This document shows, one piece after another, positions 5,680 to 61,725 of a DNA stretch of 64,000 nucleotides. Source of the DNA: Candidatus Campbellbacteria bacterium (lineage in GTDB: Bacteria > Patescibacteriota > Minisyncoccia > Phycocordibacterales > JAXHMZ01); assembly GCA_034521025.1 (NCBI GenBank), contig JAXHMZ010000001.1:15921-79920 (forward strand). Direction: 5' to 3'. Both the position numbers and the translations under genes were made by a program. Below the pieces are notes generated by a model. The model did no database searches, was not told where the DNA came from, and was given only the letters and a program-made list of their open reading frames with translations. The stretch's first letter is position 1, and every line of letters starts with the position of its first letter.

Positions 5680-7515
5680 TTAGCGAGGTTCTACGTCAAT
5701 CACACAACGTGTTTCTTCTCCGTCGTCGACTCTAAGGTCAACAATGGCATCGGTGGTTTTTGTGCAATTATCGCCGGTAACTGAATCGACAACAAAGTCT
5801 TGGTTGTCGTCGAGCACCGCCCGATAATTGTTTTCTTCCACAAAAACCTTTTCACCGTCTTCGATGTCGCGAGAGATCAATTCTCCGCTTGATCGTTCGT
5901 AGACAGTAAAGGAAACGGCACGATCAATCTCAAAAACGTAATTACCTAAGCTGGAGCCACTCTCTCCCCCCACCAAGTCAAACCTGATGGTCTCAACATC
6001 CCTGTCGTCATCGCGTTCAACTTCCAGACGCACAACAACTTCACCGTCATCGTAGTCTGAGAACGAGATGTACTTGGAATGAGACTCGCGGGTGGATGAG
6101 TAGATCTCGAGATCGTCAACACGGATGGTCAGTTCGGCGTCATCCGCCGAAGAGACAGCTCCCCAATTGACCGAGAAGCCCTTGCCGTCGTCGACATCGA
6201 CATCGTCGTTGTCACGAACGTGACTTCCATCAGAGTCGGTCACGTTCAAGTAATCGATGAGGTTGGGATCAGAATCGTGATCCTCAAACTCAAAGTACAA
6301 GACGCAGTCAACGGTCTCTCCTTCATCCACATTAACGCGGATACGGAAGTCATTGACCTTGGTGCAGTCTTGCCTGACCCTGTCGAGGTCGTAGCCAAGG
6401 TTGGAAGGAGCGTTAATGTAATAACGACCTTCATTTACCCTAGCTCGATCACCGTCACGGTAGGTATCAACGTACGCGCCATCTGAGGCTTCTAGCTCTA
6501 GCGGAAAATCTTCCGGTTCGAGGTCGCCTCCGGTCACGCGAACGTCAAAATCGATCCGACCGGATCCATTTGAAGGATCACTTCCCCCCACCAAGTCAAA
6601 CCTGATGGTCTCAACATCCCTGTCGTCATCGCGTTCAACTTCCAGACGCACAACAACTTCACCGTCATCGTAGTCTGAGAACGAGATGTACTTGGAATGA
6701 GACTCGCGGGTGGACGAGTAGATCCTGTGACCGTCAACACGGATGGTCAGTTCGGCGTCATCCGCCGAAGAGACAGCTCCCCAATTGACCGAGAAGCCCT
6801 TGCCGTCGTCGACATCGACATCGTCGTTGTCACGAACGTGACTTCCATCAGAGTCGGTCACGTTCAAGTAATCGATGAGGTTGGGGTCATTGTTCCCGGT
6901 ATCATTGTCCTCATCATCGTTATGGTCGTCGTTGTCGTCTCCGCCGTGGTCACTGTTTCCATCGTCGCCGTCGTCATCGCCACTGTCATCGTTACCGCCG
7001 TCGGTATCCTTATCGCTGTCGTTATCGCCATTATCGTCGTCTTGACTTCCAACGTTAACAACGATCTCAATCGGCGAGCCGGATCTGTTGTTGCCTGACT
7101 TGTCGCTCAGGTAGAGCACAAAATGGTACTCTCCCGACCTTTGCGGCGTCCAATTGAACGTTTCTACGGACTCTTGGTCTCCGAAGTTGTGCGTATGCAC
7201 AACCGGGAGATCGCTCACATCCGTATCGGTCGTATTCCACTCACCAAGCTCAACCCGATAAGTACCGCGAACGTATCCATAGACAATGGTAAGTTCTTCA
7301 CCGATGTCCACGTCAGCCCTAGAGCGAGCATCAGCCCAGCTCCAGGTACGGTCTTGGTTGTCCTGATAAGTAGAATTATCAACTGCGACTAGGAAGGCTT
7401 GGGGGGTTACAGCGTTTTCACCGCTGTTGCCGTCTTTTGGTTGCTGATTCAGTTGAGTACAAGCCCCAAGAAACAGCAATACAAACGGCACCAATAGCAA
7501 ACCGATCTTTTTCAT
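5680..7515 (-). CDS. Highly acidic secreted lipoprotein with an internal tandem duplication and a poly-D/N/G low-complexity tract
   Basis: Lipobox LLFLGAC. DDDNGDNDSDKDTDGGNDDSGDDDGDDGNSDHGGDDNDDHNDDEDNDTGNND tract. Two near-identical segments of about 110 aa (DPNLIDYLNVTDSDGSHVRDNDDVDVDDGKGFSVNWGAVSSADDAELTIRVD...RFDLVGG). Confidence 0.5.
   Translation of the reverse strand: MKKIGLLLVPFVLLFLGACTQLNQQPKDGNSGENAVTPQAFLVAVDNSTYQDNQDRTWSWADARSRADVDIGEELTIVYGYVRGTYRVELGEWNTTDTDVSDLPVVHTHNFGDQESVETFNWTPQRSGEYHFVLYLSDKSGNNRSGSPIEIVVNVGSQDDDNGDNDSDKDTDGGNDDSGDDDGDDGNSDHGGDDNDDHNDDEDNDTGNNDPNLIDYLNVTDSDGSHVRDNDDVDVDDGKGFSVNWGAVSSADDAELTIRVDGHRIYSSTRESHSKYISFSDYDDGEVVVRLEVERDDDRDVETIRFDLVGGSDPSNGSGRIDFDVRVTGGDLEPEDFPLELEASDGAYVDTYRDGDRARVNEGRYYINAPSNLGYDLDRVRQDCTKVNDFRIRVNVDEGETVDCVLYFEFEDHDSDPNLIDYLNVTDSDGSHVRDNDDVDVDDGKGFSVNWGAVSSADDAELTIRVDDLEIYSSTRESHSKYISFSDYDDGEVVVRLEVERDDDRDVETIRFDLVGGESGSSLGNYVFEIDRAVSFTVYERSSGELISRDIEDGEKVFVEENNYRAVLDDNQDFVVDSVTGDNCTKTTDAIVDLRVDDGEETRCVIDVEPR
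5966..6888. repeat. Intragenic direct repeat: two copies of about 300 bp, >95% identical, offset exactly 600 bp (about 5966-6268 and 6585-6888)
   Basis: gagactcgcgggtgga[tc]gagtagatc... occurs at 6101 and 6701, and the long flanking sequence is identical. Confidence 0.8.
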
Positions 7516-10997: not shown

Positions 10998-11400
10998 TAC
11001 GAACAGAGTGAGTTGAGGCGGAGAGCGGGCAAACTGCTTTGCCCGTGTGAGAGAAGCGAAAGACGGAGTATATTGCGAGCGAAGCGGAGCAATTCGAGTC
11101 GGGGTCGCGAGGCTGCCGAAGGCAGAACTTGTGACCGATTCTCCCCTCCGGCACTACGAACAGAGTGAGTTGAGGCGGAGAGCGGGCAAACTGCTTTGCC
11201 CGTGTGAGAGAAGCGAAAGACGGAGTATATTGCGAGCGAAGCGGAGCAATTCGAGTCGGGGTCGCGAGGCTGCCGAAGGCAGAACTTGTGACCGATTCTC
11301 CCCTCCGGCACCAGAGCAAAGTGAGTTGAGGCGGAGAGCGGGCAAACTGCTTTGCCCGTGTGAGAGAAGCGAAAGACGGTGAGTTGAACCGGAATTGGGC
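10998..11400 (+). repeat. tRNA-3'-end-associated modular repeat array, about 2.7 units, period 150 bp; each unit ends in ...GACCGATTCTCCCCTCCGGCAC (tRNA-Leu 3' mimic)
   Basis: Unit cgattctcccctccggcactACGAACAGAGTGAGttgaggcggagagcgggcaaactgctttgcccgtgtgagagaagcgaaagacgg... is repeated at 10977, 11127 and 11277. Confidence 0.85.
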
Positions 11401-11442
11401 GCAAATAAATGCTTCAATCTATAGATTGAAGCATTTATTTGC
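11401..11442. repeat. Perfect 42-nt palindrome containing the core aaatgcttcaatctatagattgaagcattt (a second copy of the core is at 40381-40414)
   Basis: gcaaataaatgcttcaatcta|tagattgaagcatttatttgc. The 30-nt core is identical at both sites. Confidence 0.85.
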
Positions 11443-12435: not shown

Positions 12436-14328
12436 TTAGTCACACAGTGTCCAGCCGTGTAAGTAGTCGAGTTTCCTATTGCCGTATCGCACCTCACCAT
12501 CAAAGTGATGGATAATGGTGTGTCCGACAAACAGGTCTGCCTGCCAACCGTGGTTATTGCCCTGTTGTTCAGACACATCACACGGTGGGTACCCGATGAT
12601 CGTCATCTCAGCCGGACCATTTTCGTCCGCTGGAGCAATCTCTCCGGTCCAGGAGGTTGAAGGCTCCTGATGATCGAGAGCACCAGACTGATCGTGCTTG
12701 TAGTAGATCGCCCAACCGAAGTTGTAGCAATCTTCTTCTGATGTGTTGGTGACAGTGAACTCAAGACTGCCATCGGGAAGCTCGGTGATAGTACCGGTGA
12801 GACCGGTAGCATCATCAGCACTCGTGGGATCAACGCATACTAGCGTCTCACCGTCTTTGCCATCCTGGCCATCTTCTCCGTCTTCGCCATCCTGACCGTC
12901 TTCACCGTCGGCTCCGTCGCAAACGTACCAAGTACCTGTTACTTCGGAGTTGTCGAGGATGCCGTTGCGGTTGTTGTCAAGACCAACTTCAACCCTAACA
13001 CCACCGTTTTCACAGTTCTCTCCCGAAGAAACGCTTGTAGTGTCGACGAGAGTAGTGAATCCATCTTCGCCGTCCTCGCCATCTTCTCCGTCTTCCGGGT
13101 AACCAATGAAAACTGTTTCGGTGACTTCAGACTCTTCGAGCGTATCGTTGCGATTGGAGTCGAGGCCAAAGTAGAGAGTTACACCCTCTTCTCCGAACTC
13201 AACGTCAACAAGTACGTTGTAACCGTCTTCGCCATCTTCACCGTCTTCGCCGTCCTGACCGTCTTCGCCATCGCTGGGACGGCAGAAGCGCACACTTTGC
13301 TCGACTTCGCTTTCTTCAAGCTCGCCGTTGCGGTTGGTGTCGAGACCGGTCTCGAAGAGTACGCCACCGTTGCGACAGATGTCGCCAGGATGGATCTCTA
13401 CGACGTCGACTAGACTATTGTATCCGTCTTCGCCGTCCTGACCGTCCTCACCATCTTCGCCATCTTCACCGTCTTCGCCGTCCCGACCGTCTTCACCGTC
13501 GACTCCGTCGCAAACGTAAGTAACATCAGTTACTTCGCTTTCGTCCAGAACCGTATCACGGTCAGTATCCAGGCCAACGCTTACTCGCGTACCTCCATTC
13601 GGACATTCTTGTGATTCTTCGATGGGCGTGGTGTCAATTAAAGCTGTATGCCCATCTTCACCGTCTTCGCCATCGGCACCATCTTCACCGTCTTCACCGT
13701 CTTCGGGGAACGGAATAAAGATGGTTTCTGTTACCTCCGAATCATCGAGCTCGCCGTTGCGGTTAGTGTCGAGACCAAGCTCTACTGTAACGCCATCTGA
13801 TTCAAAAATGACGTTAAACAGAACGCTGAGTCCGTCTTCGCCGTCCTCACCGTCGGCACCATCTCGACCGTCTCTGCCATCTTCACCGTCCTCGCCGTCG
13901 ACACCATCTCTGCCGTCTTCGCCATCCTCACCGTCTTCGCCATCCTCACCGTCGCGAGGGATAACCAGAACGTCTACGACACAGTGCGCTTGACTGTTAA
14001 GGTAGTTATACGTTTCGTATGTAAACGTATACGTACCATCGGGCAGACAATCGCCAGTCCAGCTGGAAACGCCGACAGCTCTTGCCTGCTCTGCTACTGT
14101 CACACGCGTCCGTGTGGTTCCGGGTGTGAGCTCGTAGGTAAGCTGTGAGCCATGGTCTTCGACCGGCTCAATTACGTTTCCGGATTCATCCAGAAGCGCA
14201 AGCTCGATCCCAGTGGCGCCGTCCGGCGCAGAATACTCTACTTCAAGAGTATTAACAGGCATCGGACGACTACAAGCCGCCAGCAGTAACGCTAGAAAGA
14301 CCGCTGAAAGTATGTAAAGCTTTTTCAC
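12436..14328 (-). CDS. Acidic surface lipoprotein with (Gly-Glu/Arg-Asp)n collagen-like triplet runs alternating with EF-hand-type Ca-binding loops
   Basis: Start set to GTG at 14328 after AGGGGAGG (MKKLYILSAVFLALLLAACS lipobox). Triplet run GEDGEDGEDGEDGRDGVDGEDGEDGRDGRDGADGEDGEDG. Five or more loops of the form DTNRNGELDDSE (D-x-N-x-N-G-x-L-D-x-x-E). Confidence 0.55.
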   Translation of the reverse strand: MKKLYILSAVFLALLLAACSRPMPVNTLEVEYSAPDGATGIELALLDESGNVIEPVEDHGSQLTYELTPGTTRTRVTVAEQARAVGVSSWTGDCLPDGTYTFTYETYNYLNSQAHCVVDVLVIPRDGEDGEDGEDGEDGRDGVDGEDGEDGRDGRDGADGEDGEDGLSVLFNVIFESDGVTVELGLDTNRNGELDDSEVTETIFIPFPEDGEDGEDGADGEDGEDGHTALIDTTPIEESQECPNGGTRVSVGLDTDRDTVLDESEVTDVTYVCDGVDGEDGRDGEDGEDGEDGEDGQDGEDGYNSLVDVVEIHPGDICRNGGVLFETGLDTNRNGELEESEVEQSVRFCRPSDGEDGQDGEDGEDGEDGYNVLVDVEFGEEGVTLYFGLDSNRNDTLEESEVTETVFIGYPEDGEDGEDGEDGFTTLVDTTSVSSGENCENGGVRVEVGLDNNRNGILDNSEVTGTWYVCDGADGEDGQDGEDGEDGQDGKDGETLVCVDPTSADDATGLTGTITELPDGSLEFTVTNTSEEDCYNFGWAIYYKHDQSGALDHQEPSTSWTGEIAPADENGPAEMTIIGYPPCDVSEQQGNNHGWQADLFVGHTIIHHFDGEVRYGNRKLDYLHGWTLCD

Positions 14329-14341
14329 TGGCCTCCCCTTT

Positions 14342-15529
14342 CTAGAAGTGGACATTTACACCAACGCCCAATTCGAGATCCGTCTCCCTGGGATCGGTGA
14401 TCGTATCGAATTGATTACTCAAACCGATCTCAGTAAAGGGACGGAAAACTTCGGTCGCTTCAAACTCCAAGCCGGCAAACATCACTCCCGCAAAACCGTT
14501 GCGAGGCTCGTCAAACGAGCCTTCCTGCGCACCGAACTGGTAGAACAATCCGCCACCTGCGTAGGGGTTGGCACTACCTGCCACATAGGGCCAGAACAGC
14601 ACATCAACTCCGACGCCAAACATCATGGCTTCTACTCCGCCGGCTCTGTTCAGAGACAAGTGACCGCGCACGCCAAGCCCTTCTTCGCTCGACGAAAGCA
14701 AGCCAGTATCTCCAACGTGAAGGTTTAGCGCAAGTGGAGAAATTCCGCCAACGGAAGCACCAACGTATGTGGTAGACGGACGATCAGGGGTGGTATACAC
14801 CACCTCCGTTACGCCATCTTCACCCGCTGGTCCACGTGGGCCTTCTGGTCCTTGTTCTCCAGTTTCGCCTTGCGGACCGGCAGGTCCTTGTGAACCTGCT
14901 TCACCGCGAGGACCGGGCTCGCCTTGCGAACCTTCCAGACCTTGTTCTCCACGGGGACCAATGTCACCTTGCTCGCCCGGCAGACCCATAGGGCCAGCCA
15001 GACCTTGTTCTCCGTCTTCGCCTTGCGGGCCCTGTGGTCCGACTTCGCCGCGAGGACCTCGGATATTACCAAGCTCTCGCATCTCACCGTCCGTGTACGT
15101 AATCGAGAGGTTGCCCTCTTCATCGAGGTAAACACTCTCTATTCCGCGTCCGGGCTCCCCTTCGGGGCCTTGCGGACCGGCGGGGCCTTGTGGGCCTGCT
15201 TCACCGCTTTCTCCCTCAGGACCCCGAGGACCTTGCGGGCCTTCGGTTTGTGGCAAGCATTCTGATTCCAGAATGCGAGCAATGACGACAAACGCCTCGT
15301 TACGCGTCAGGCTATCCCGACCGCGAATTGTAAACGTACCTTCGTCGCCGACAATGACGTTGCACTCAACCGCTCGGTTAAGCGCTTCGCGCGCCCAATC
15401 GACCACCGATTCCATATCGGTGAATACTTCGGGTGCTGGATGTGCCGCCCCGATAGGCGGCTCCGAATCTTGTGCCTGCGCAATAGGGATAACGAAGAGT
15501 AGGAAAAGCGCAAAACAAAACTTTTTCAC
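14342..15529 (-). CDS. SLH-domain protein with collagen-like Gly-X-Y repeats and a C-terminal domain ending in F
   Basis: GTG start after AGGAGAAG. Signal peptide. SLH-like segment [85 protein letters not shown] and further GLxGxxGxxG runs. C-terminus ...GVGVNVHF. Confidence 0.55.
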
Positions 15530-15656: not shown

Positions 15657-15849
15657 ATAATTGTTCGCTTTCTCGCTCCCTTCACTCACGCTGTTCGTTG
15701 CGGGTCCGAGCCGGGACTCGAATCTTACAGATTCGGTACAGATCTCGTATCGTGCTCGCAAAGCTGCGCGCGATTAACTCGATCTTTTCTCGTCCTGGCG
15801 AAAGCGAAATTGTTCGCTTTCTCGCTCCCTTCACTCACGCTGTTCGTTG
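15657..15849 (-). repeat. tRNA-3'-end-associated repeat: one 151-nt unit plus a partial second unit; the unit ends in GATTCGAGTCCCGGCTCGGACCCGCA (tRNA-Trp 3' mimic)
   Basis: aattgttcgctttctcgctcccttcactcacgctgttcgttgcgggtcc occurs at 15657 and 15808. The minus-strand left end is ACGAACAGCGTGAG. Confidence 0.8.
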
Positions 15850-15921
15850 CGGGTCCAGCAGGACTCGAACCTGCAGTCCTGGTTTTGGAGACCAGTGGTT
15901 TGCCAATTAACCGATAGACCC
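15850..15921 (-). tRNA. tRNA-Trp(CCA)
   Basis: Acceptor GGGTCTA/TGGACCC, anticodon stem CTGGT/ACCAG, loop CTCCAAA. Confidence 0.75.
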
Positions 15922-16969: not shown

Positions 16970-17120
16970 ATTCGAATTCTGACACGAGCAAAGCAGTTTG
17001 TTTTGGGATTCTCTCCTTACAGGAGCTGTACACCTTTCGTATCGTACTCACTTTGTTCCGTGCGATATACTCAAGGTTTTCGAATCCTGCCCGAAAGCTT
17101 CGCTTTCTCGGCCACAAAAT
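16970..17120 (-). repeat. tRNA-associated repeat module in permuted/inverted arrangement downstream of tRNA-Tyr
   Basis: Minus-strand reading contains cggGAACAAAGTGAG, CTGTACAGCTCCTGTAAGGAG, CAAACTGCTTTGC and GAGTATATCGCAC. Also an inverted copy of the tRNA-Tyr T-arm region (cgggcaggattcgaa). Confidence 0.6.
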
Positions 17121-25674: not shown

Positions 25675-26100
25675 CAACGAACAAAGTGAGTTGGTAGAAA
25701 GCTCATTTCTGAGCTTTCGTGCGGGAATCGAAAAGGTTCTCCCATATCCCTCACCAGTTTTCTGGTGGGGGATGGGAAACCTGCACAGATCCTGTAAGGT
25801 TGAGCTGCGAGCGAGCGCAGCAACGAAAAACCTTTTGAGATATTTTGTGAGATACCGAAACAAAATATCCAAAAGGTGTACTGATCTCGTGAATCGATTC
25901 GCCCCGGGCACTAATAAAACCAATGGAAGTAGCAAGCAAACAGTTTGCTTCGGTGAACGAAATCGAAAAGGTTGAGTAGTCGGACGGAACGAAGTGATAC
26001 GACACGATACCGATTGTAGTTCAGATTCCCGCCCCGAGCACAAGAGAGTGAAGCGAGCGTAATGCTCGGGAGCATGCAAACTGCTTTGTGTGCGATGAAG
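25675..26100 (+). repeat. tRNA-3'-end-associated repeat array (units about 240, 127 and one partial), with mimics GATTCGCCCCGGGCAC and CAGATTCCCGCCCCGAGCAC
   Basis: Begins caACGAACAAAGTGAG. Contains the CGAAAAGG and CAAACTGCTTTG motifs. Confidence 0.75.
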
Positions 26101-26438: not shown

Positions 26439-26511
26439 CCGCCCATAGCTCAGTTGGTAGAGCAGTTGCCTTTTAAGCAAACGGTCCTAGGTTCGAATCC
26501 TAGTGGGCGGA
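26439..26511 (+). tRNA. tRNA-Lys(TTT)
   Basis: Acceptor CCGCCCA/TGGGCGG, loop CTTTTAA, T-loop TTCGAAT. Confidence 0.8.
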
Positions 26512-26960
26512 CACGAAAGAAGTGAGGGGACGACCAAGCAAACAAATAGTTTTGTTTGCGTCTAGGATGAGAAGAGGTCGAATATATCGCGCGCAGTACA
26601 GCGAGCACGATTTGAGACCTGTACCGAATCCGTAAGATTCGAATCCTGAGTCGGGCGGACACGAAAGAAGTGAGGGGACGACCAAGCAAACAAATAGTTT
26701 TGTTTGCGTCTAGGATGAGAAAAGGCTCAAATGGTCCGGGGGACTGTTTGAGAAGGTTGCCAGATAGTTTGAGAGCTTGCGAACCAAACTATCGACAACC
26801 TGTACAGCTCCTGTAAGGAGGAATTAATCGGGCGCAGCTTGGCGAGCACGATTTGAGACCTGTACCGAATCTGTAAGATTCGAATCCTGAGTCGGGCGGA
26901 CACGAACAAAGTGAGAGGACGACCAAGCAAGCAAATAGTTTTGTTTGTTTTAGTGTGGAT
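26512..26960 (+). repeat. tRNA-3'-end-associated repeat array: unit 1 about 147 nt; unit 2 is the same plus a nested ~105-nt module; then a partial unit 3. Units end in GATTCGAATCCTGAGTCGGGCGGA
   Basis: cACGAAAGAAGTGAGGGGACGACCAAGCAAACAAATAGTTTTGTTTGC is repeated at 26512, 26659 and 26899. The nested module at 26727-26832 is about 95% identical to 48697-48802. Confidence 0.85.
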
Positions 26961-28487: not shown

Positions 28488-28975
28488 CACGAACAAAGTG
28501 AGTGTGACGGGGAAGCAGGCAAACTGCTTTGCCTGCGTGAGAGGACTCGAGAATGAGCATATCGCAGCGGAGCTTGTGACACATACGAGATCTGTACAGG
28601 TTCTGTAAGAACCGAGTCCTCTCCCCGGCACACGAACAAAGTGAGTGTGACGGGGAAGCAGGTAAACTGCTTTACCTGTGCGAGGACGAGAAAAGGCTGA
28701 GTTTATCGCAACGAGTCCGCAGGACGAAGTGTCAGTCTGTACCGAACCGAAGTCGACTCCCCGGCACAGGTTGAGCGCAGCGAAAGCTGGGCCGGGAGAA
28801 AGACAATTTCTTGTCTTGCGTGAGAGGGCTCGAAAAGATCGAGTATATCGAGCGCAACTCTGTGAGCACGATACGAGATCTGTACAGGTTCAGTAAGAAC
28901 CGAGTCCTCTCCCCGGCACAAGTGAGTCCGCGAACGCAGTGACGGGAGCAGGTAAACTGTTTTGCCTGCGTGATT
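28488..28975 (+). repeat. tRNA-3'-end-associated repeat array (3 units plus a partial); units end in CCGAGTCCTCTCCCCGGCAC or GTCGACTCCCCGGCAC
   Basis: cACGAACAAAGTGAGTGTGACGGGGAAGCAGG[CT]AAACTGCTTT[GA]CCTG occurs at 28488 and 28632. Mimics at about 28612-28631, 28753-28768 and 28899-28918. Confidence 0.85.
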
Positions 28976-40380: not shown

Positions 40381-40414
40381 TTAAATGCTTCAATCTATAG
40401 ATTGAAGCATTTAA
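40381..40414. repeat. Second copy of the aaatgcttcaatctatagattgaagcattt palindrome, between convergent rpsA and pth
   Basis: ttaaatgcttcaatcta|tagattgaagcatttaa. Core identical to 11406-11437. Confidence 0.85.
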
Positions 40415-47449: not shown

Positions 47450-47624
47450 TGCTATGACCCCACGGAGAATCGAATCTTACAGATTCGGTAGAGTCTTCGT
47501 GTCGTACTCGCTACACTCCGTGCGACTAACTCAGACTTTTCGATTCACCGATCTGAGCCAAATTATTGGCTCATTTGTGGTATGAACAAAAAAGGACTGC
47601 TCAAGCAGTCTCTTTTTGTATTCA
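47450..47624 (-). repeat. tRNA-3'-end-associated repeat unit downstream of tRNA-Glu, ending in CTACCGAATCTGTAAGATTCGATTCTCCGTGGGGTCA (Glu 3' mimic)
   Basis: Minus-strand reading: hairpin gactgcttgagcagtc, CGAAAAGTCTGAGTTAGTCGCACGG, then the conserved right arm plus an exact copy of the tRNA-Glu 3' end. Confidence 0.75.
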
Positions 47625-48596: not shown

Positions 48597-48880
48597 CCGT
48601 ACAGTTCAAGATGGCACAACGATGTGTCTTTATACAAAAGTTCCTATAGTGCAAGAGCAAGCCAACTGCTTGGCTTGCGTGTTAGGACTCGAAAAGCTCA
48701 AACAGTCCGGGGGACTGTTTGAGAAGGTTGCCAGATAGTTTGAGAGCTTGCGAATCAAACTGTCGACAACCTGTACAGCTCCTGTAAGGAGGGAGTATAT
48801 CGCGCGAAGCAGAGCGAGCACGACGCGAAGACTGTACCGAATCTGTAAGATTCGAGTCCTATATCGCCCACCTAGACAAA
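48597..48880 (+). repeat. tRNA-3'-end-associated repeat unit carrying the nested ~105-nt module; ends in CTGTACCGAATCTGTAAGATTCGAGTCCTATATCGCCCACC (Val 3' mimic)
   Basis: The module at 48697-48802 matches 26727-26832. Terminal 24 nt are identical to the tRNA-Val 3' end. Confidence 0.8.
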
Positions 48881-55760: not shown

Positions 55761-56294
55761 ATGCGAAAAGAAAAAAGATCGTTTTTTGAAAGACTTACAG
55801 GCGCCATCAATATGGACGAGGAAGATGAGTACGAATTCGATGAAGAATTCGAAGATGAGGAATATTCGCGTCCCGAGAGACGCTCGTTCAGTCAAGATGA
55901 TCCAATGAACATAAGAGAGAATAGAGCTGCGGCAGCCTTTTCACCGGGTGAACTTTCGGAGGGTCAACTATCAGTGGACGTTTTGCAAACACCTGACGAC
56001 ATCATAATCAAGACCATCGTAGCCGGAGTAGCTCCAGAAGATCTGGATATTTCAATAACTCGCGACTCGGTCACAATCAAAGGTAGTCGAGAGGAAGATT
56101 TTTCGGTAAACGATAATGATTATTTTCATCGCGAAGTTTCTTGGGGTAACTTTTCAAGGACTATTTCTCTGCCAGCTGAAATAGAAGTAGAAGAAGCAGA
56201 TGCTCAAGAAAAACACGGCGTACTAATTATTCGGCTACCAAAAATAGACAAGGGGCGAGAAACCAAACTTTCTGTTCGCTCAGCGGGTAATTAA
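55761..56294 (+). CDS. Hsp20/alpha-crystallin small heat-shock protein
   Basis: ACD pattern (VDVLQTPDDIIIKTIVAGV...GVLIIRLPK). Start moved to the internal ATG. Confidence 0.75.
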   Translation: MRKEKRSFFERLTGAINMDEEDEYEFDEEFEDEEYSRPERRSFSQDDPMNIRENRAAAAFSPGELSEGQLSVDVLQTPDDIIIKTIVAGVAPEDLDISITRDSVTIKGSREEDFSVNDNDYFHREVSWGNFSRTISLPAEIEVEEADAQEKHGVLIIRLPKIDKGRETKLSVRSAGN

Positions 56295-56332
56295 TTCGTC
56301 TAAACGGAAGAAACGAAAATACCCACAAATAC

Positions 56333-56370
56333 ATTCCTCCTTTTACGTTATACTGTAAAAGGAGGTTTTA
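56333..56370 (+). terminator. Terminator after hsp20 (11-bp perfect stem)
   Basis: cctccttttac-gttatac-tgtaaaaggagg, then ttttat. Confidence 0.6.
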
Positions 56371-56632
56371 TGTACTTTAAAAGAATTTTCCATTAAAAAG
56401 AAAGAGGTCAAAAGTTAACTATAGGGACTTCTGTCCCCTTCGCAATTACAGAAAATTACCGTCGTCGTAAACCACATCGCTATCAATCACCTCGGCTTCT
56501 ATCGAACTCCTGGACAAACACAAGAGCGACTTGAGAGACAACAAATACACCTTTATACACATTAAGACAGCCACGTGGGCTGCCTTTAAATGTTTTTGCT
56601 TAATAAAAATTCCAAAACTGTTTGTATAAATT

Positions 56633-56785
56633 TTTGTGTGCCCCGTCTAGGACTCGAATTTTACAGATTCGGTACAGGTCTCAAATCGTGCTCGTTTCAC
56701 TCCGCTCGATATACTCAACCTTTTCTCGTCCTCAAGCAGGCAAAATAGTTTGCCTGCTTCCCTGTCCCCACTTACTGCGTTCGTG
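56633..56785 (-). repeat. tRNA-3'-end-associated repeat unit downstream of tRNA-Phe; its terminal mimic GATTCGAGTCCTAGACGGGGCAC does not match the adjacent Phe tRNA
   Basis: Minus-strand: ACGAACGCAGTAAGTGGGG...GCAAACTATTTTGC...GACGAGAAAAGGTTGAGTATATCGAGCGG...GAGCACGATTTGAGACCTGTACCGAATCTGTAAAATTCGAGTCC. Confidence 0.75.
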
Positions 56786-56857
56786 TGCCAGGTCGGACTC
56801 GAACCGCCGACCCTTCGCTCTTCAGACAAATGCTCTAGCCAACTGAGCTACCTGGGC
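56786..56857 (-). tRNA. tRNA-Phe(GAA)-like; possible pseudogene (3-nt insertion in the T-stem, 1-nt deficit in the acceptor 3' strand)
   Basis: Good D-arm (TAGCTCAGTTGGCTAGAGC) and anticodon arm (loop CTGAAGA). However GTCGG[CGG]TTCGAGTCCGAC, and acceptor GCCCAGG against CCTGG-C. Confidence 0.5.
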
Positions 56858-57718
56858 GTATTTTAATTTTGCAGGTTTTCTTCGTTACCACCGTCAGAAT
56901 TTACACCATCATCATTCTCCGTGCCTTCTTCTGAACCGTCAAAATTATCGAGGAAATCACCAACGGCTCCGCTTGCGCCTGAATTTACTTCTTCATTATT
57001 CTCAAACGTTTCTTGAGCACTTTCAAAGAAGGCTTGCATTCTGCAATATACGGCTGAGACAAATAATAGAGAAGTATAAATAATCCTATAACCACCAACC
57101 AGCGCACCACTCTCATGAGCGTTGCCATGCGTTGCGCGCGCTGCATCTTTTTTAGCATCCGATGGTTTTCCTCGGTCGACGCGCAGTTTTTACCAATAAT
57201 TCTTCTAGTTCATCAGGCTCCACGTTCAAAAGTATAGCTTAAAAAAAGCCAAAAGTGAAGAGTTTTCTTTCAAACTTCTTGCTTGTTTACACTAACTTTA
57301 CTTCTTACCATTAGTGACTCAAACTCTCAGCATACACACTTGACATATATAACTATCAATGTTATACTCGCAATAGTTTAGAATCGCTTTGGTTCTAAAT
57401 ACGTACACTTACAAAAGATGTTGAAAGGAAGGGATGGTATTATGGATTTCATCGCGACGCATTGGTACGTATCTGGGCCGGATTGCTCATTCTCAGCTTT
57501 GGCTACGTGGCTGTCCACAGAATTTTCGTATTTACGCCACCTATGCCAAGACTGTCGAAGGAGCAGTTGGATAGAGAGTACCTGAAGGACTTTTTAGCGA
57601 TGCTTGTTGTACTCGTGAGTATCGTTTTGATACTCATCCGATTCAACCACTTGGCCTAACTCGACATCGATTCATAAGCTCCGGCAGATAGATATATTTT
57701 CTGCATGGGGCTTTTTCT

Positions 57719-57887
57719 TTGCTTCGCTCAGCTTGTGCCCGGCAGGAAACTCTCCTTACAGGAACGGTACAGGTTTCATATCGTGCTCGCTTCGCTTCGC
57801 GCGATATATTCAACCTTTTCGATTCCCGCCCGCTAGCAAAGAAATTTGCTCACTCGCGGTCACAGCTTTTCGCTTCGCTCAGCTTGT
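57719..57887 (-). repeat. tRNA-3'-end-associated repeat unit downstream of tRNA-Arg; ends in CCTGTAAGGAGAGTTTCCTGCCGGGCAC plus a partial next unit
   Basis: Minus-strand: cACAAGCTGAGCG...GAATCGAAAAGGTTGAATATATCGCGCG...GAGCACGATATGAAACCTGTACCGTTCCTGTAAGGAG. Confidence 0.75.
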
Positions 57888-57958
57888 GCCCCCGGCAGGA
57901 ATCGAACCTGCATTTAGACGTTAGGAGTGTCTTGTTCTATCCATTGAACTACGAGGGC
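57888..57958 (-). tRNA. tRNA-Arg(CCT)
   Basis: Acceptor GCCCTCG/CGGGGGC, loop CTCCTAA, T-loop TTCGATT. Upstream gtggtatagtggtaac. Confidence 0.7.
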
Positions 57959-58576: not shown

Positions 58577-58882
58577 GCGATCCATTTAATTGGATTGCTT
58601 TTTTATTTTGTCTAATTATTTTCATCTATTTCTGTCATGCACTGATTAAACTCTTCTGTTTCGCTCCAACCACATTCTCCATCACTTTGCCGCTCACAAA
58701 CAGCTGAATCATAGCAGGCGTATTCCGGGCGCCACTCACAGGTGGTTACCATGTTCGGAACATCTGAACAGACTTGTCCGGAACATCCGCCCACATAACA
58801 TCCTTCTTTTTGCGCTGGGTAATTTTGATTCGCCTCCTCGCTTGATATTTCATCATTAGATTTAGTTGTTTCAAGGAGGAAT

Positions 58883-59435
58883 CTATCTCAATGGGAATAT
58901 ACATCCGATCATCTTTTTCGGCAACCCGGAAGCATTAGCTCGATGTAAAATCAACCTAGCCTCCCCAGAGTAATTATCTTCAACATCTATTTCAGCCGTA
59001 AATGACACAAAATCTTCGGTCATCCAGTCTCCACTAGCGGTAGCATCAAGTTTCAGCAATAACCTCTCCATCGTCACTTTCTAAAGAAACAGGAAAAGTG
59101 GCTTCAAAAAACCAATATCCACGCGCTTGACCTTCAAGGGAAAAATTATTGCCAACCTCCTCTCCGGGCCTTGGCGAAGAAATTCTAACTAGGTCATACT
59201 TCTCCATCTCATTTCCAATATCGCGCGTAAACGTCTTACCGTTAGCCGCACATTGCTCCGGATATGACTCCATAATAGGATATCCGGCTTCTGCACATTC
59301 TTCAAATGAGGTTATATCTTTTTTTGCTCCTTTGTCACTCTTTTCGCTTGTAATTACATATATACCAACAATGACTAATACAACCAAAGCAACCAAAGAA
59401 GTAACAATTGCTATTGTTTTTATTTTCATACACAC
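58883..59435 (-). pseudogene. Membrane-anchored Gmad2-like (Ig-like, GerM-associated) domain protein interrupted by a frameshift
   Basis: ORF 59046-59435 (RISSPRPGEEVGNNFSLEGQARGYWFFEATFPVSL...) continues in another frame as ORF 58883-59077 (ASGDWMTEDFVSFTAEI...). Confidence 0.45.
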
Positions 59436-60464: not shown

Positions 60465-60824
60465 TTATATCTCACTAGAGTTGTCGTTTTCAGGAGCTTT
60501 TTCTTTCAAAAGGAGGGTAATTTTTTCAATATCTATCTTCGCGTGATCTTCATAATAAATAACATCTTCGTTTCGTATGACTATTACTTGTGGTGATTCG
60601 TGTACTATTCCAAATGTTTCAGCTATATAGTTAGAGATATCCCTCGCGTCTTGGACAACCAATACATACATTTGGAGTTCTATTTCTTTGTCTCTTTTCT
60701 CCAAATTTTTGAATTCTTCGTAGACTCTTCGGCTCTGCATGCAAACGTTACTTGTTTTAAGAACCAACACCGGTGAGTCGTACGAACGAGCCAAAGCAAC
60801 AAAAAGATCTTTCTTCGGTTTCAA
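60465..60824 (-). CDS. Thioredoxin-fold YtxJ/DUF2847-like (monothiol bacilliredoxin-like) protein
   Basis: Single Cys in KTSNVCMQS, similar to the YtxJ T-C-P-x-S motif. About 120 aa. Confidence 0.4.
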   Translation of the reverse strand: MKPKKDLFVALARSYDSPVLVLKTSNVCMQSRRVYEEFKNLEKRDKEIELQMYVLVVQDARDISNYIAETFGIVHESPQVIVIRNEDVIYYEDHAKIDIEKITLLLKEKAPENDNSSEI

Positions 60825-61044
60825 CTAATTGCATCGCTATTTATTATAACCTTGATACATACCGAGATATCAGAGCCCCTATAAAAACAATCATTGAGAA
60901 AAGATAAAGCCACAGTAATATAGCTACTAAGAAACTTGCGGCGCCATATAGAAGTAAAGTTTGAGAAGAAAGCGAAATATAAGCCAAGTAAATTATTGAG
61001 TAATAAAATAAGTACAAGAGGCCGCAAATCCCCCGATAAATGAA

Positions 61045-61725
61045 TCAAGCCACGACGCGCTGCGTCTCGAGAAAATCTATATGAACCCCCCAAAACAAAC
61101 TAAGCAGAACAAGTATTAATACAGCGCTAAGAGCCCTGATTGTTGCACCGGACATACTGTAATTAAAGAAATCTTCAGCTAATTCAATTCCGGTAGTTAG
61201 AAGAAGTCGCGCCACAAAAAGCGCGATTATGAAAAATAGAAAAACAAGCATATAAGCTGAAGAATAGAGATTGTTGTATAAAATATTTTTGGTTGGCGAA
61301 TTACTCTCAATTGAAACTGAGAAAACCTCAAAAAGTGATCTTTGCAAGGCTCGGAAAAATCCTGTAGCTGCAAACACAACCAAAAGAAAACCGACCGCGG
61401 CAACGACAATATCTACTGTCAAATTGTTAGCGCTTTCAATAACGCGCTCAAAAAAGACACTGGCTCCGCTTCCAAAATATCTAAGGAAGAATTCCTCAAT
61501 ACCAGACTGAGCAAATGAACCAAATACAAATATACTCGCTAATGAAGTAATTAAAATTAATATCGGCGCCAAAGCAAAAAGAGCAAAATACGCAAGTGCA
61601 GCGGATTTTTCGGCAATCCTAAATTGGATAAACACCTTGGCTACTCTTGTAATAAAGTTCTTAACTGAAAGTAACTGTGCCATACACACATAGAATACCA
61701 TGAAAACATTCGTTGATATCAACAA
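61045..61725 (-). CDS. YihY/BrkB-family membrane protein (possibly C-terminally truncated)
   Basis: AALAYFALFALAPILILITSLASIF signature. Overlapping downstream ORF 60821-61093 in another frame may be its displaced C-terminus. Confidence 0.45.
   Translation of the reverse strand: MLISTNVFMVFYVCMAQLLSVKNFITRVAKVFIQFRIAEKSAALAYFALFALAPILILITSLASIFVFGSFAQSGIEEFFLRYFGSGASVFFERVIESANNLTVDIVVAAVGFLLVVFAATGFFRALQRSLFEVFSVSIESNSPTKNILYNNLYSSAYMLVFLFFIIALFVARLLLTTGIELAEDFFNYSMSGATIRALSAVLILVLLSLFWGVHIDFLETQRVVA

Follow-up and report, generated by a model that had tools for sequence, protein, structure and literature searches.

A defective tRNA-Phe gene and the tRNA-linked repeat units of a Candidatus Campbellbacteria genome segment

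Here we describe a phenylalanine transfer RNA (tRNA) gene, tRNA-Phe(GAA), with a defective 3' end, and the repeat unit that follows it, in a stretch of 64,000 nucleotides (nt) of a Candidatus Campbellbacteria bacterium (assembly GCA_034521025.1, contig JAXHMZ010000001.1, positions 15,921 to 79,920; the whole stretch is hereafter called the window). The defect is present in the sequence, but it is most likely no property of a working gene. With a probability that we put at about one half, the lesions are sequence or assembly errors, in which case the living cell would have a canonical gene ending in ...TTCGAGTCCGACCCTGGGCA. A local cluster of single-base insertions and deletions (indels), due to assembly error or very recent decay, is favoured over element damage as the explanation, because two neighbouring genes are frameshifted twice each and five upstream genes are intact; the adjacent repeat is not demonstrably the cause of the damage. 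The noteworthy object is the repeat element rather than the tRNA-Phe defect, since units of its kind appear to form a tRNA-coupled structured RNA module, hitherto undescribed and widespread in Patescibacteria, that lies on the same strand as the tRNA.

The tRNA-Phe gene and its neighbourhood

The tRNA-Phe gene, 73 nt long and without an encoded CCA, occupies 56785-56857 of the minus strand and was identified with ARAGORN, with Rfam (RF00005) and through the syntenic orthologues at loci L122, L124 and L129. It parses into GCCCAGG TA GCTC AGTTGGCTA GAGC A TTTGT CTGAAGA GCGAA, followed by GGGTC GGCGG TTCGAGT CCGAC CTGGC A C. ARAGORN and Rfam call the same set of 12 tRNA genes in the window, among which tRNA-Phe has the lowest Rfam score (39.0 bits; the other 11 reach 47.5-71.6 bits), a value that clears the Rfam gathering threshold for tRNA (29 bits). 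No second tRNA-Phe gene was found by ARAGORN within the 64-kb window.

Most of the gene is that of a canonical bacterial tRNA-Phe(GAA) (RF00005), with matching D-arm, CUGAAGA loop, 5-nt variable loop, TTCGAGT, A73 and syntenic position; it departs from one in an acceptor 3' strand two bases short, one T-stem mismatch and a score of 39 instead of about 70 bits. In agreement with a preliminary description of the locus, the D- and anticodon arms are intact in the cmscan alignment and in the comparison with orthologues: the D-arm is GCTC/GAGC, and the anticodon stem TTTGT/GCGAA, with two G.U pairs, carries a 7-nt loop with U33. Both changes of the window copy in the anticodon stem still pair, as G.U, and the 5' 60 nt of the gene retain all conserved features. 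The anticodon loop CUGAAGA (56820-56826) has a G at position 37 in all tRNA-Phe genes of the clade examined; most bacteria have an A at this position of tRNA-Phe.

The lesions are concentrated at 56787-56796 (minus strand), a segment that comprises the T-stem 3' strand CCGAC and the short acceptor 3' strand and that was delimited by the cmscan alignment and 27 relatives. The T-loop TTCGAGT is canonical (7 nt), and the T-stem GGCGG/CCGAC forms four of its five pairs, with an A opposite a G as the one G.A mismatch, so that a 5-bp T-stem is not reached. Nor is a 7-bp acceptor stem, the 3' strand being CTGGC where the 5' strand GCCCAGG would call for CCTGGGC. Accordingly, cmscan reports two deleted positions in the acceptor 3' strand and one non-canonical T-stem pair. 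Two single-base deletions, one of a C at the T-stem/acceptor junction (CCC->CC) and one of a G (GGG->GG), each from a run of three, make the acceptor 3' strand two bases shorter than the strand it should pair with. All three lesions, the mismatch and the two deletions, are confined to the last 13 nt. With RNAfold, the minimum free energy structure of the window tRNA-Phe is not a cloverleaf (z = -0.27), whereas that of the L124 tRNA-Phe is (z = -2.6).

The comparison set consists of 27 related tRNA-Phe genes (14 distinct sequences) from syntenic loci, a metagenome scan and other related loci. The metagenome scan gave no match with a first tRNA-Phe body pattern and 18 more loci with a relaxed one, all of them canonical; three more tRNA-Phe genes were present among the related loci, and the genes of the syntenic relatives are likewise canonical. 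Every one of the 27 has an acceptor stem of 7/7 pairs, a T-stem of 5/5 pairs and A73; in the register of the orthologues, the window copy has 4/7 and 4/5. The Rfam scores of the orthologues are 72.2, 70.2 and 69.7 bits, which places the window copy 31-33 bits below them.

Three of the related genes (L136, L138 and L143) clarify the defect. They end in ...GTCGG TTCGAGC CCGAC CCTGGGC A and share GCCCAGG and CCGAC with the window copy, which reads CCGAC-CTGG-CA where they have CCGACCCTGGGCA; the 3' end of the window gene is thus theirs minus one C and one G. For this reason the earlier claim that the acceptor 3' strand lacks a G was right, if incomplete, as a C is missing as well, and the extra CGG that had been proposed for the T-stem is no insertion; it arose from a mis-parse of the G.A mismatch together with the missing C. 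The T-stem looks chimeric, with a 5' strand GGCGG of the L124 type (partner CCGCC) and a 3' strand CCGAC of the L136 type, and the G.A mismatch is there because the L124-type GGCGG faces the L136-type CCGAC instead of CCGCC.

The genes next to tRNA-Phe are also disrupted. Directly upstream lies a homologue of orf121 (56881-57238, minus strand; 121 amino acids (aa) in L124 and 121-139 aa in relatives), which tblastn, translations and DNA alignment show to have lost one nucleotide near 57178 (CGTC-GACC) and another near 57037, so that residues 1-15, residues 17-64 and the C-terminal part lie in three different frames. At a distance of 1.8 kb from tRNA-Phe, a Gmad2-domain gene (58636-59366, minus strand) is split over three frames as well (59366-59055, 59044-58889 and 58851-58636), with a shift of +1 near 59048 and a second of net +1 (+1 or -2) at about 58852-58888, a length-variable stretch; a 127-aa stub of it is annotated as a gene by NCBI (P0241). 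Together, tRNA-Phe, orf121 and Gmad2 contain at least six indels within about 2.3 kb (about 56.79-59.05 kb). The fragments of the two protein genes are 42-87% identical to their homologues, as similar as intact genes are, and the indels must therefore be artefacts or very recent.

Elsewhere the sequence is clean. The genes for CitMHS, TsaD, valyl-tRNA synthetase (ValRS), PrsW and HSP20 in the 7 kb before tRNA-Phe (49.5-56.3 kb) are all full-length, the tRNA-Arg gene (65 bits) and a glutaredoxin gene within the indel-rich block are intact, and the rest of the window holds long unbroken open reading frames (ORFs). At 60821-61725 (minus strand), an ORF of 226 aa that covers positions 5-180 of the 259-position BrkB/YihY family profile shares 49 nt with a 90-aa ORF in a different frame; this overlap may be a further frameshift, at about 61.07 kb, which would carry the indel-rich stretch to about 61 kb.

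The window is part of a bacterial chromosome. Its class I aminoacyl-tRNA synthetase is the ValRS, with 100% identity to the valine--tRNA ligase of a 'Candidatus Campbellbacteria' metagenome-assembled genome (MAG) in NCBI. The order TsaD-ValRS-PrsW-HSP20-tRNA-Phe(-) is kept in L122, in L124/125/127 and in L129 (ValRS 76-79% identical). The closest relative found (L131, ERR4921265; ValRS 95% and HSP20 99% identical) does not reach the gene: its ValRS contig stops short of the tRNA, and its HSP20 contig loses synteny before it. When L131 is compared with window positions 56200-56900, similarity is gone about 190 nt past the HSP20 stop codon and another ORF is found there, which makes the HSP20/tRNA-Phe junction a point of rearrangement or insertion.

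Repeat units downstream of tRNA genes

The unit next to tRNA-Phe belongs to a family that was searched for with a covariance model (R1) built from an alignment (A2) of 129 sequences. In the window, R1 finds 15 units (E<0.01), all downstream of tRNAs and none elsewhere. Ten of the 12 tRNA genes, all except Cys and Ser-CGA, have units behind them on the same strand, between one and three per gene and 120-240 nt in length. In this clade, a unit starts with the trailer ACGAACAAAGTGAG, a hairpin and a segment antisense to the T-loop and the T-stem 3' strand (the anti-T segment). The conserved core comes next, then a second hairpin, whose loop is CUGUAAG, and the unit ends by repeating the T-stem 3' strand, the acceptor 3' strand and the discriminator base of the tRNA. 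About 130 nt separate the end of the tRNA from this 3' fragment (units of about 150 nt), with neither an ORF nor an integrase between them. Units have one orientation relative to the tRNA; they are 60-86% identical between different tRNAs and 94-100% identical between adjacent tandem copies.

The conserved core of about 65 nt has the marks of a structured RNA. Four helices (P2, P3, an apical stem and P4; 19 pairs) were tested in A2, and 95% of the cells are in standard pairs, compared with 25-41% in slid controls. Changes on both sides of a pair occur in 450 cells, against 139+-8 in shuffles, and involve 12 of the 19 pairs, by a statistic that ignores phylogeny. One pair (109-167) is U.G in 26 sequences, which favours an RNA of the tRNA strand. 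P3 has a conserved C.A and a GGA/GA cap, P4 closes a UGUAA loop, the core contains tandem G.A, and a nearly invariant AGUA/GAA consensus at the sequence level suggests an S-turn between P2 and P3. With 5'-AGUA-3'/5'-GAA-3' between two covarying helices, the core shares the signature of the sarcin-ricin/loop E (S-turn, bulged-G) motif in a new context, a likeness at the level of the sequence consensus.

No family of Rfam 15 matches the units: tRNAs alone score above the gathering threshold, and at E<=10 nothing plausible was matched within the unit regions. Literature searches on a tRNA-linked element of this kind found no published description. Mimicry of hairpin-ribozyme loop B or of the sarcin-ricin loop was considered and rejected on inspection: GAGUACGA forms Watson-Crick pairs as the 3' strand of P3, two of which covary, no loop-A-like N/GUC plus AGAA fits, and neither the Hairpin model nor any other ribozyme model of Rfam gives a match.

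The core is widespread. A core pattern matches the window eight times (0 expected) and at least 120 loci in GTDB species genomes. Among the matches listed, to which the counts of cores and trailers here and below refer, every locus with a named taxon is a Patescibacteria MAG (Paceibacteria/Parcubacteria, Nomura-, Kaiser-, Taylor-, Zambryski- and Yonathbacteria, and bins labelled Saccharibacteria), and the rest are titled 'bacterium' or 'uncultured bacterium'. A viral origin was discarded, with no match of the core pattern in IMG/VR viral contigs and a phage BLAST that returned generic tRNA-Arg similarity alone.

As in the window, the cores are tied to tRNAs, 98 of 125 lying 60-360 nt downstream of a same-strand tRNA (32 anticodons). 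The tie extends to the identity of the tRNA, as measured on the 87 closest tRNA-core cases. The median exact run of the anti-T segment is 11 nt with its own tRNA and 5 nt with non-cognate tRNAs; for the 3' copy, the values are 12 and 5 nt. A cognate copy of the acceptor 5' strand (at least 7 nt) is present in 19 of the 87 trailers and in none of the controls. Behind the syntenic tRNA-Phe genes, R1 finds units in L122 and L129 and none in L124.

Some related loci are arranged differently. Free-standing cores occur at L069:6003-6124, L071:922-1043, L096:5839-5960, L099:3483-3604 and L104:5857-5978, with GGTGAGCG(A)TAGCGCAAGACC before them, a GGGTGGGGTGCG-like sequence after them and no adjacent tRNA or other Rfam RNA, so that the core module is used in a second scaffold too. 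At L134:6060-6320 (minus strand), L141 and L140/L142, tRNA-Phe is followed by a different trailer element: a copy of the acceptor 5' strand comes first, then a hairpin and an anti-T segment, then a core unlike that of the units, and last the 3' end, copied exactly. Such trailers hint at a superfamily of tRNA-linked units wider than the core pattern captures.

The unit after tRNA-Phe occupies 56639-56784 on the minus strand (R1 match 56634-56754, 90.2 bits), and no terminator was found between it and the tRNA. It begins with the trailer motif ACGAACGCAGTAAG (56771-56784), a variant of the consensus ACGAACAAAGTGAG that in this clade follows each tRNA end and unit end. The 5' hairpin AAGCAGGCAAA-CTAT-TTTGCCTGCTT (56734-56759; repeat families D7 and I17) and the anti-T segment GAGGACGAGAA (56723-56733) come next. 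The core (56656-56721), delimited with A2 and pair counts, comprises P2 (AGGTT/GACCT), the S-turn (GAGUA/UGA), P3 (TATCGAGC/GCACGATT), the apical stem, GUAC and the P4 hairpin with its UGUAA loop. The unit closes with the tRNA-like 3' end TTCGAGTCCTAGACGGGGCA (56639-56658), which has the parts of a T-loop, T-stem 3' strand, acceptor 3' strand and A73 at canonical length. All these parts lie on the minus strand. The unit is slightly degenerate, with a T.T in P3 and a C.A at the closing pair of P4, where 127 of the 129 aligned sequences have C-G.

Although cognate in most units, the anti-T segment is here non-cognate to tRNA-Phe, and so is the 3' end; GAGGACGAGAA and CCTAGACGGGGCA match both tRNA-Phe and each other poorly, and 17 of 21 bases of the 3' end are as in the inferred intact Phe 3' end. 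The earlier observation that the unit ends in a tRNA 3' copy that is not of Phe thus stands, as TTCGAGTCCTAGACGGGGCA cannot pair with the 5' half of tRNA-Phe. Its assignment to a different tRNA did not find a source: the matching 5' strand GCCCCGT occurs in no tRNA of the window or of 151 related loci. 'Foreign' remains a fair word for this end. The nearest sequence to the Phe unit is the Lys unit of the same genome (81%, and 86% over 84 nt), compared with 66% for the unit at the same position in L129; the end may go back to conversion by a unit of the Lys type or to divergence.

The other units of the window were placed by R1. On the minus strand, single units follow tRNA-Arg(CCT) (gene 57886-57958; unit 57729-57849, 104.9 bits), tRNA-Glu (47450-47570, 93.5 bits), tRNA-Trp (15698-15818) and tRNA-Tyr (16990-17110). 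The Tyr unit is preceded by a terminator-like hairpin, and its anti-T segment GGGCAGGATTCGAA is complementary over 14 nt, with no mismatch, to the stretch TTCGAATCCTGCCC of the tRNA. On the plus strand, three units follow tRNA-Leu(TAG) (28519-28923), two divergent units follow tRNA-Leu(TAA) (25701-26045) and two divergent units follow tRNA-Leu(CAA) (11029-11315), the last with a 157-nt tandem repeat of 100% identity. Also on this strand are the two units after tRNA-Lys (26542-26903), the closest relatives of the Phe unit, and one unit after tRNA-Val (48755-48875).

An extra module of about 93 nt sits in the second Lys unit and, preceding the R1 match, in the Val unit. In a wider delimitation of about 93-106 nt (26721-26826 and 48692-48797), it includes a separate hairpin, CTGTAC...CTGTAAGGAGG, and its two copies share 93% identity. 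In the Trp and Lys units, the copied 3' end exceeds that of the tRNA by 2 nt (for example, CCTGAGTCGGGCGGA compared with CCTAGTGGGCGGA; tRNAs at 15849-15921 and 26439-26512), and in the Arg and Leu-TAA units it falls 2 nt short, so that the 3' copies of the units often differ in length from their tRNAs.

The window contains repeats of other kinds as well. An identical 32-nt perfect palindrome, TAAATGCTTCAATCTATAGATTGAAGCATTTA, occurs at 11406-11437 and 40382-40413, both intergenic and far apart. Two large ORFs with collagen triple-helix repeats and DUF7151 at 12436-15529 (minus strand) are the reason for the 9-nt-period tandem repeats at 12.8-14.0 kb. A 300-nt direct repeat (5965-6264 and 6583-6882; 98% identical, 618 nt apart) lies inside one ORF of 611 aa.

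Origin of the tRNA-Phe defect

An artefact is in keeping with the nature of the affected gene, which is essential, normally single-copy and canonical in every relative, and with the frameshifts that surround it. Three observations weigh on the other side. The three lesions all fall into the 13-nt segment that the units duplicate, for which the chance is about 0.03 with two random indels, and this restriction is the pattern expected from conversion by a degenerate unit end. The bunching of indel errors in about 2.3 kb of an otherwise clean contig is unusual in itself, and one of the Gmad2 shifts is located within a length-variable stretch.

The first of these observations bears on a mechanism driven by the element, which we regard as somewhat unlikely. 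The last 13 nt of the gene would have been replaced through gene conversion or unequal recombination, with the degenerate 3' end copy of a now-lost Phe-cognate unit as the donor and the T-loop, 3' end and trailer of the tRNA as the partner; the outcome would be an impaired gene or pseudogene tolerated through another tRNA-Phe gene, or a recent lesion in the sampled population. The position of the lesions 3' of the T-loop, exactly where units duplicate, and the chimeric T-stem (GGCGG as in L124, CCGAC as in L136) are what such an exchange would leave. Run lengths have changed in other unit ends of the window (GGG in the Arg unit against GGGGG in its tRNA; the Leu-TAA unit 2 nt short), the greater similarity of the Phe unit to the Lys unit than to its positional counterpart in L129 points to homogenisation within the genome, and the Phe unit itself has a non-cognate end. 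This mechanism leaves the four frameshifts in the neighbouring protein genes unexplained, however, its donor ...TCCGACCTGGCAC is found nowhere else in the window, and selection against damage to a sole tRNA-Phe would be strong, with no second Phe gene in the 64 kb.

Real decay of the region would cover those frameshifts. Under relaxed selection, a block of about 2.3-4 kb with tRNA-Phe, orf121 and Gmad2 would have collected small indels, the repeat unit being uninvolved. We consider this improbable, even though six or more indels are spread over three adjacent loci, the relative with 95% ValRS identity loses synteny about 190 nt past HSP20, that is, at a rearrangement-prone spot, and BrkB is possibly split too, at about 61.07 kb. 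Within the same block, tRNA-Arg (65 bits) and glutaredoxin are intact, the 5' 60 nt of tRNA-Phe keep every conserved feature, and the fragments are no less conserved than intact genes, so all events would have to be very recent. Least probable by far is a functional non-canonical tRNA-Phe with a bulged acceptor stem of 5-6 bp, possibly repaired after transcription. ARAGORN and Rfam do call the gene a tRNA, and both anticodon-stem changes keep pairing as G.U, but none of the 27 relatives departs from the canonical form, the score falls 31-33 bits under that of the orthologues, the predicted structure of minimum free energy is no cloverleaf, and to our knowledge no bacterial system for editing the 3' acceptor strand is known.

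A chimeric tRNA made by assembly collapse of tandem units was also considered. The tRNA and unit ends share only about 9-11 identical bases, and the idea was dropped because this is too short for graph collapse. The preliminary description had named element damage and sequencing error as the two options; a defect in the sequence and a non-cognate unit end are indeed there, and the additional evidence favours the local indel cluster. A defective essential tRNA in a MAG, amid frameshifted neighbours, needs a check of the reads before a biological conclusion is drawn.

Nature and significance of the units

The units are probably a functional RNA rather than a recently mobile DNA element, because of their strand bias, their compensatory changes and U.G pairs, the consensus of a tertiary motif, and their conservation across lineages and at the same tRNAs in syntenic relatives. 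More specifically, and only tentatively, they may represent a new class of tRNA-coupled noncoding RNA tailored to each tRNA, or an RNA-based selfish element, with the odd 3' end of tRNA-Phe as the footprint of an exchange. A unit would be transcribed with its tRNA as a 3' trailer, and the anti-T segment and the 3' copy would close it into a T-stem-like helix, to which an added acceptor 5' copy would contribute the rest of an acceptor/T minihelix in about a quarter of cases. Enzymes of tRNA maturation would then define the ends of the unit, and the S-turn core would bind a hypothetical protein partner. Unequal recombination and gene conversion would be promoted by the direct repetition of the tRNA 3' end and would account for the tandem arrays (2 x 157 nt of 100% identity at Leu-CAA, three units at Leu-TAG) as well as for homogenisation within the genome and for non-cognate or shortened ends, as in the Phe unit. 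Possible roles could be in tRNA maturation, in quality control or as a decoy; alternatively, the units could be selfish RNA that targets tRNA loops.

Several observations complicate this model. The acceptor 5' copy is limited to 19 of 87 trailers and missing from the units of this window, in other genomes a terminator-like hairpin with a T-run separates tRNA and unit in 41 of 87 trailers, and about 20% of the cores are not beside a detected tRNA. In addition, the antisense T-loop part often fits the upstream tRNA better than the 3' side of its own unit, and the anti-T segment may pair with the precursor tRNA. Finally, at L106:1795-2125 (plus strand), a core has before it a second copy of the 5' half of tRNA-Pro, which reaches as far as the anticodon loop (...CGCGGTTTGGG), and just behind it the intact tRNA-Pro gene, a mirror image of the usual 3' layout.

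Part of this would suit non-autonomous mobile DNA, that is, miniature integrative or transposable elements aimed at tRNA T-loops, with the 3' copies as displaced attachment-site fragments or target duplications. A regenerated tRNA with a displaced 3' fragment that starts in the T-loop mimics islands integrated into tRNA genes (PMC4383910; PMC1762012), and the mirror layout at L106, the tandem arrays, the closer resemblance of units within a genome than at the same position in relatives, the cores away from tRNAs and the anti-T segments that fit the upstream tRNA better could all be read in this way. We nevertheless judge such an origin unlikely. The repeats of about 150 nt have no ORF or integrase between them, and copies at different tRNAs are only 60-86% identical, unlike miniature inverted-repeat transposable elements and insertion-sequence derivatives with their many near-identical copies, terminal inverted repeats and target-site duplications. 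The core sequence is shared by many lineages of Patescibacteria and shows compensatory changes, U.G pairs and tertiary motifs of RNA, the same tRNAs are occupied in syntenic relatives, and viral contigs in IMG/VR gave no match.

Islands and prophages integrated into tRNA genes leave displaced tRNA 3' fragments (Islander database, PMC4383910; Ms6 with an attachment site, attB, in the T-loop, PMC1762012). Like them, the units present an intact tRNA and, some way behind it, a direct repeat of the tRNA's 3' part that begins in the T-loop. Most units carry a cognate 3' fragment (median 12 against 5 nt), the fragment of the Phe unit being non-cognate. Unlike the islands, they span about 130 nt instead of kilobases, have no integrase or cargo, contain a conserved structured RNA with an antisense T-arm, and occur at most tRNA genes of the genome.

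Tandem repeats with a copy of the tRNA 3' end are also a feature of tyrT in E. coli, where Egan and Landy in 1978 and Rossi et al. in 1981 reportedly described a 178-bp 3' unit repeated about three times, each repeat with the 3'-terminal ~19 nt of tRNA-Tyr. The tyrT repeats are attributed to unequal recombination. The tyrT case is a single locus in one lineage and is not known to have a conserved RNA core, whereas the units described here are genome-wide, covarying and spread over many lineages of Patescibacteria.

tRNA-like modules serve RNA end formation or mimicry in the transfer-messenger RNA (tRNA-like domain), in mascRNA-type 3' modules and in the Y RNA YrlA (PMC3985003; PMC4201824). The 19 of 87 units with an acceptor 5' copy could form a comparable acceptor/T minihelix from this copy, the T-stem and the acceptor 3' strand with its discriminator base. 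They differ from these modules in having a structured domain of about 65 nt in place of the T-loop and in copying the cognate neighbour instead of having a fixed identity; the units of this window differ further in being without the acceptor 5' copy.

The module can readily explain why tRNA loci show tandem repeats and chimeric ends, features that complicate assembly and tRNA annotation in Patescibacteria genomes. If expressed, the units would add a new level of RNA biology tied to tRNAs in a major radiation of uncultivated bacteria whose genomes are minimal.

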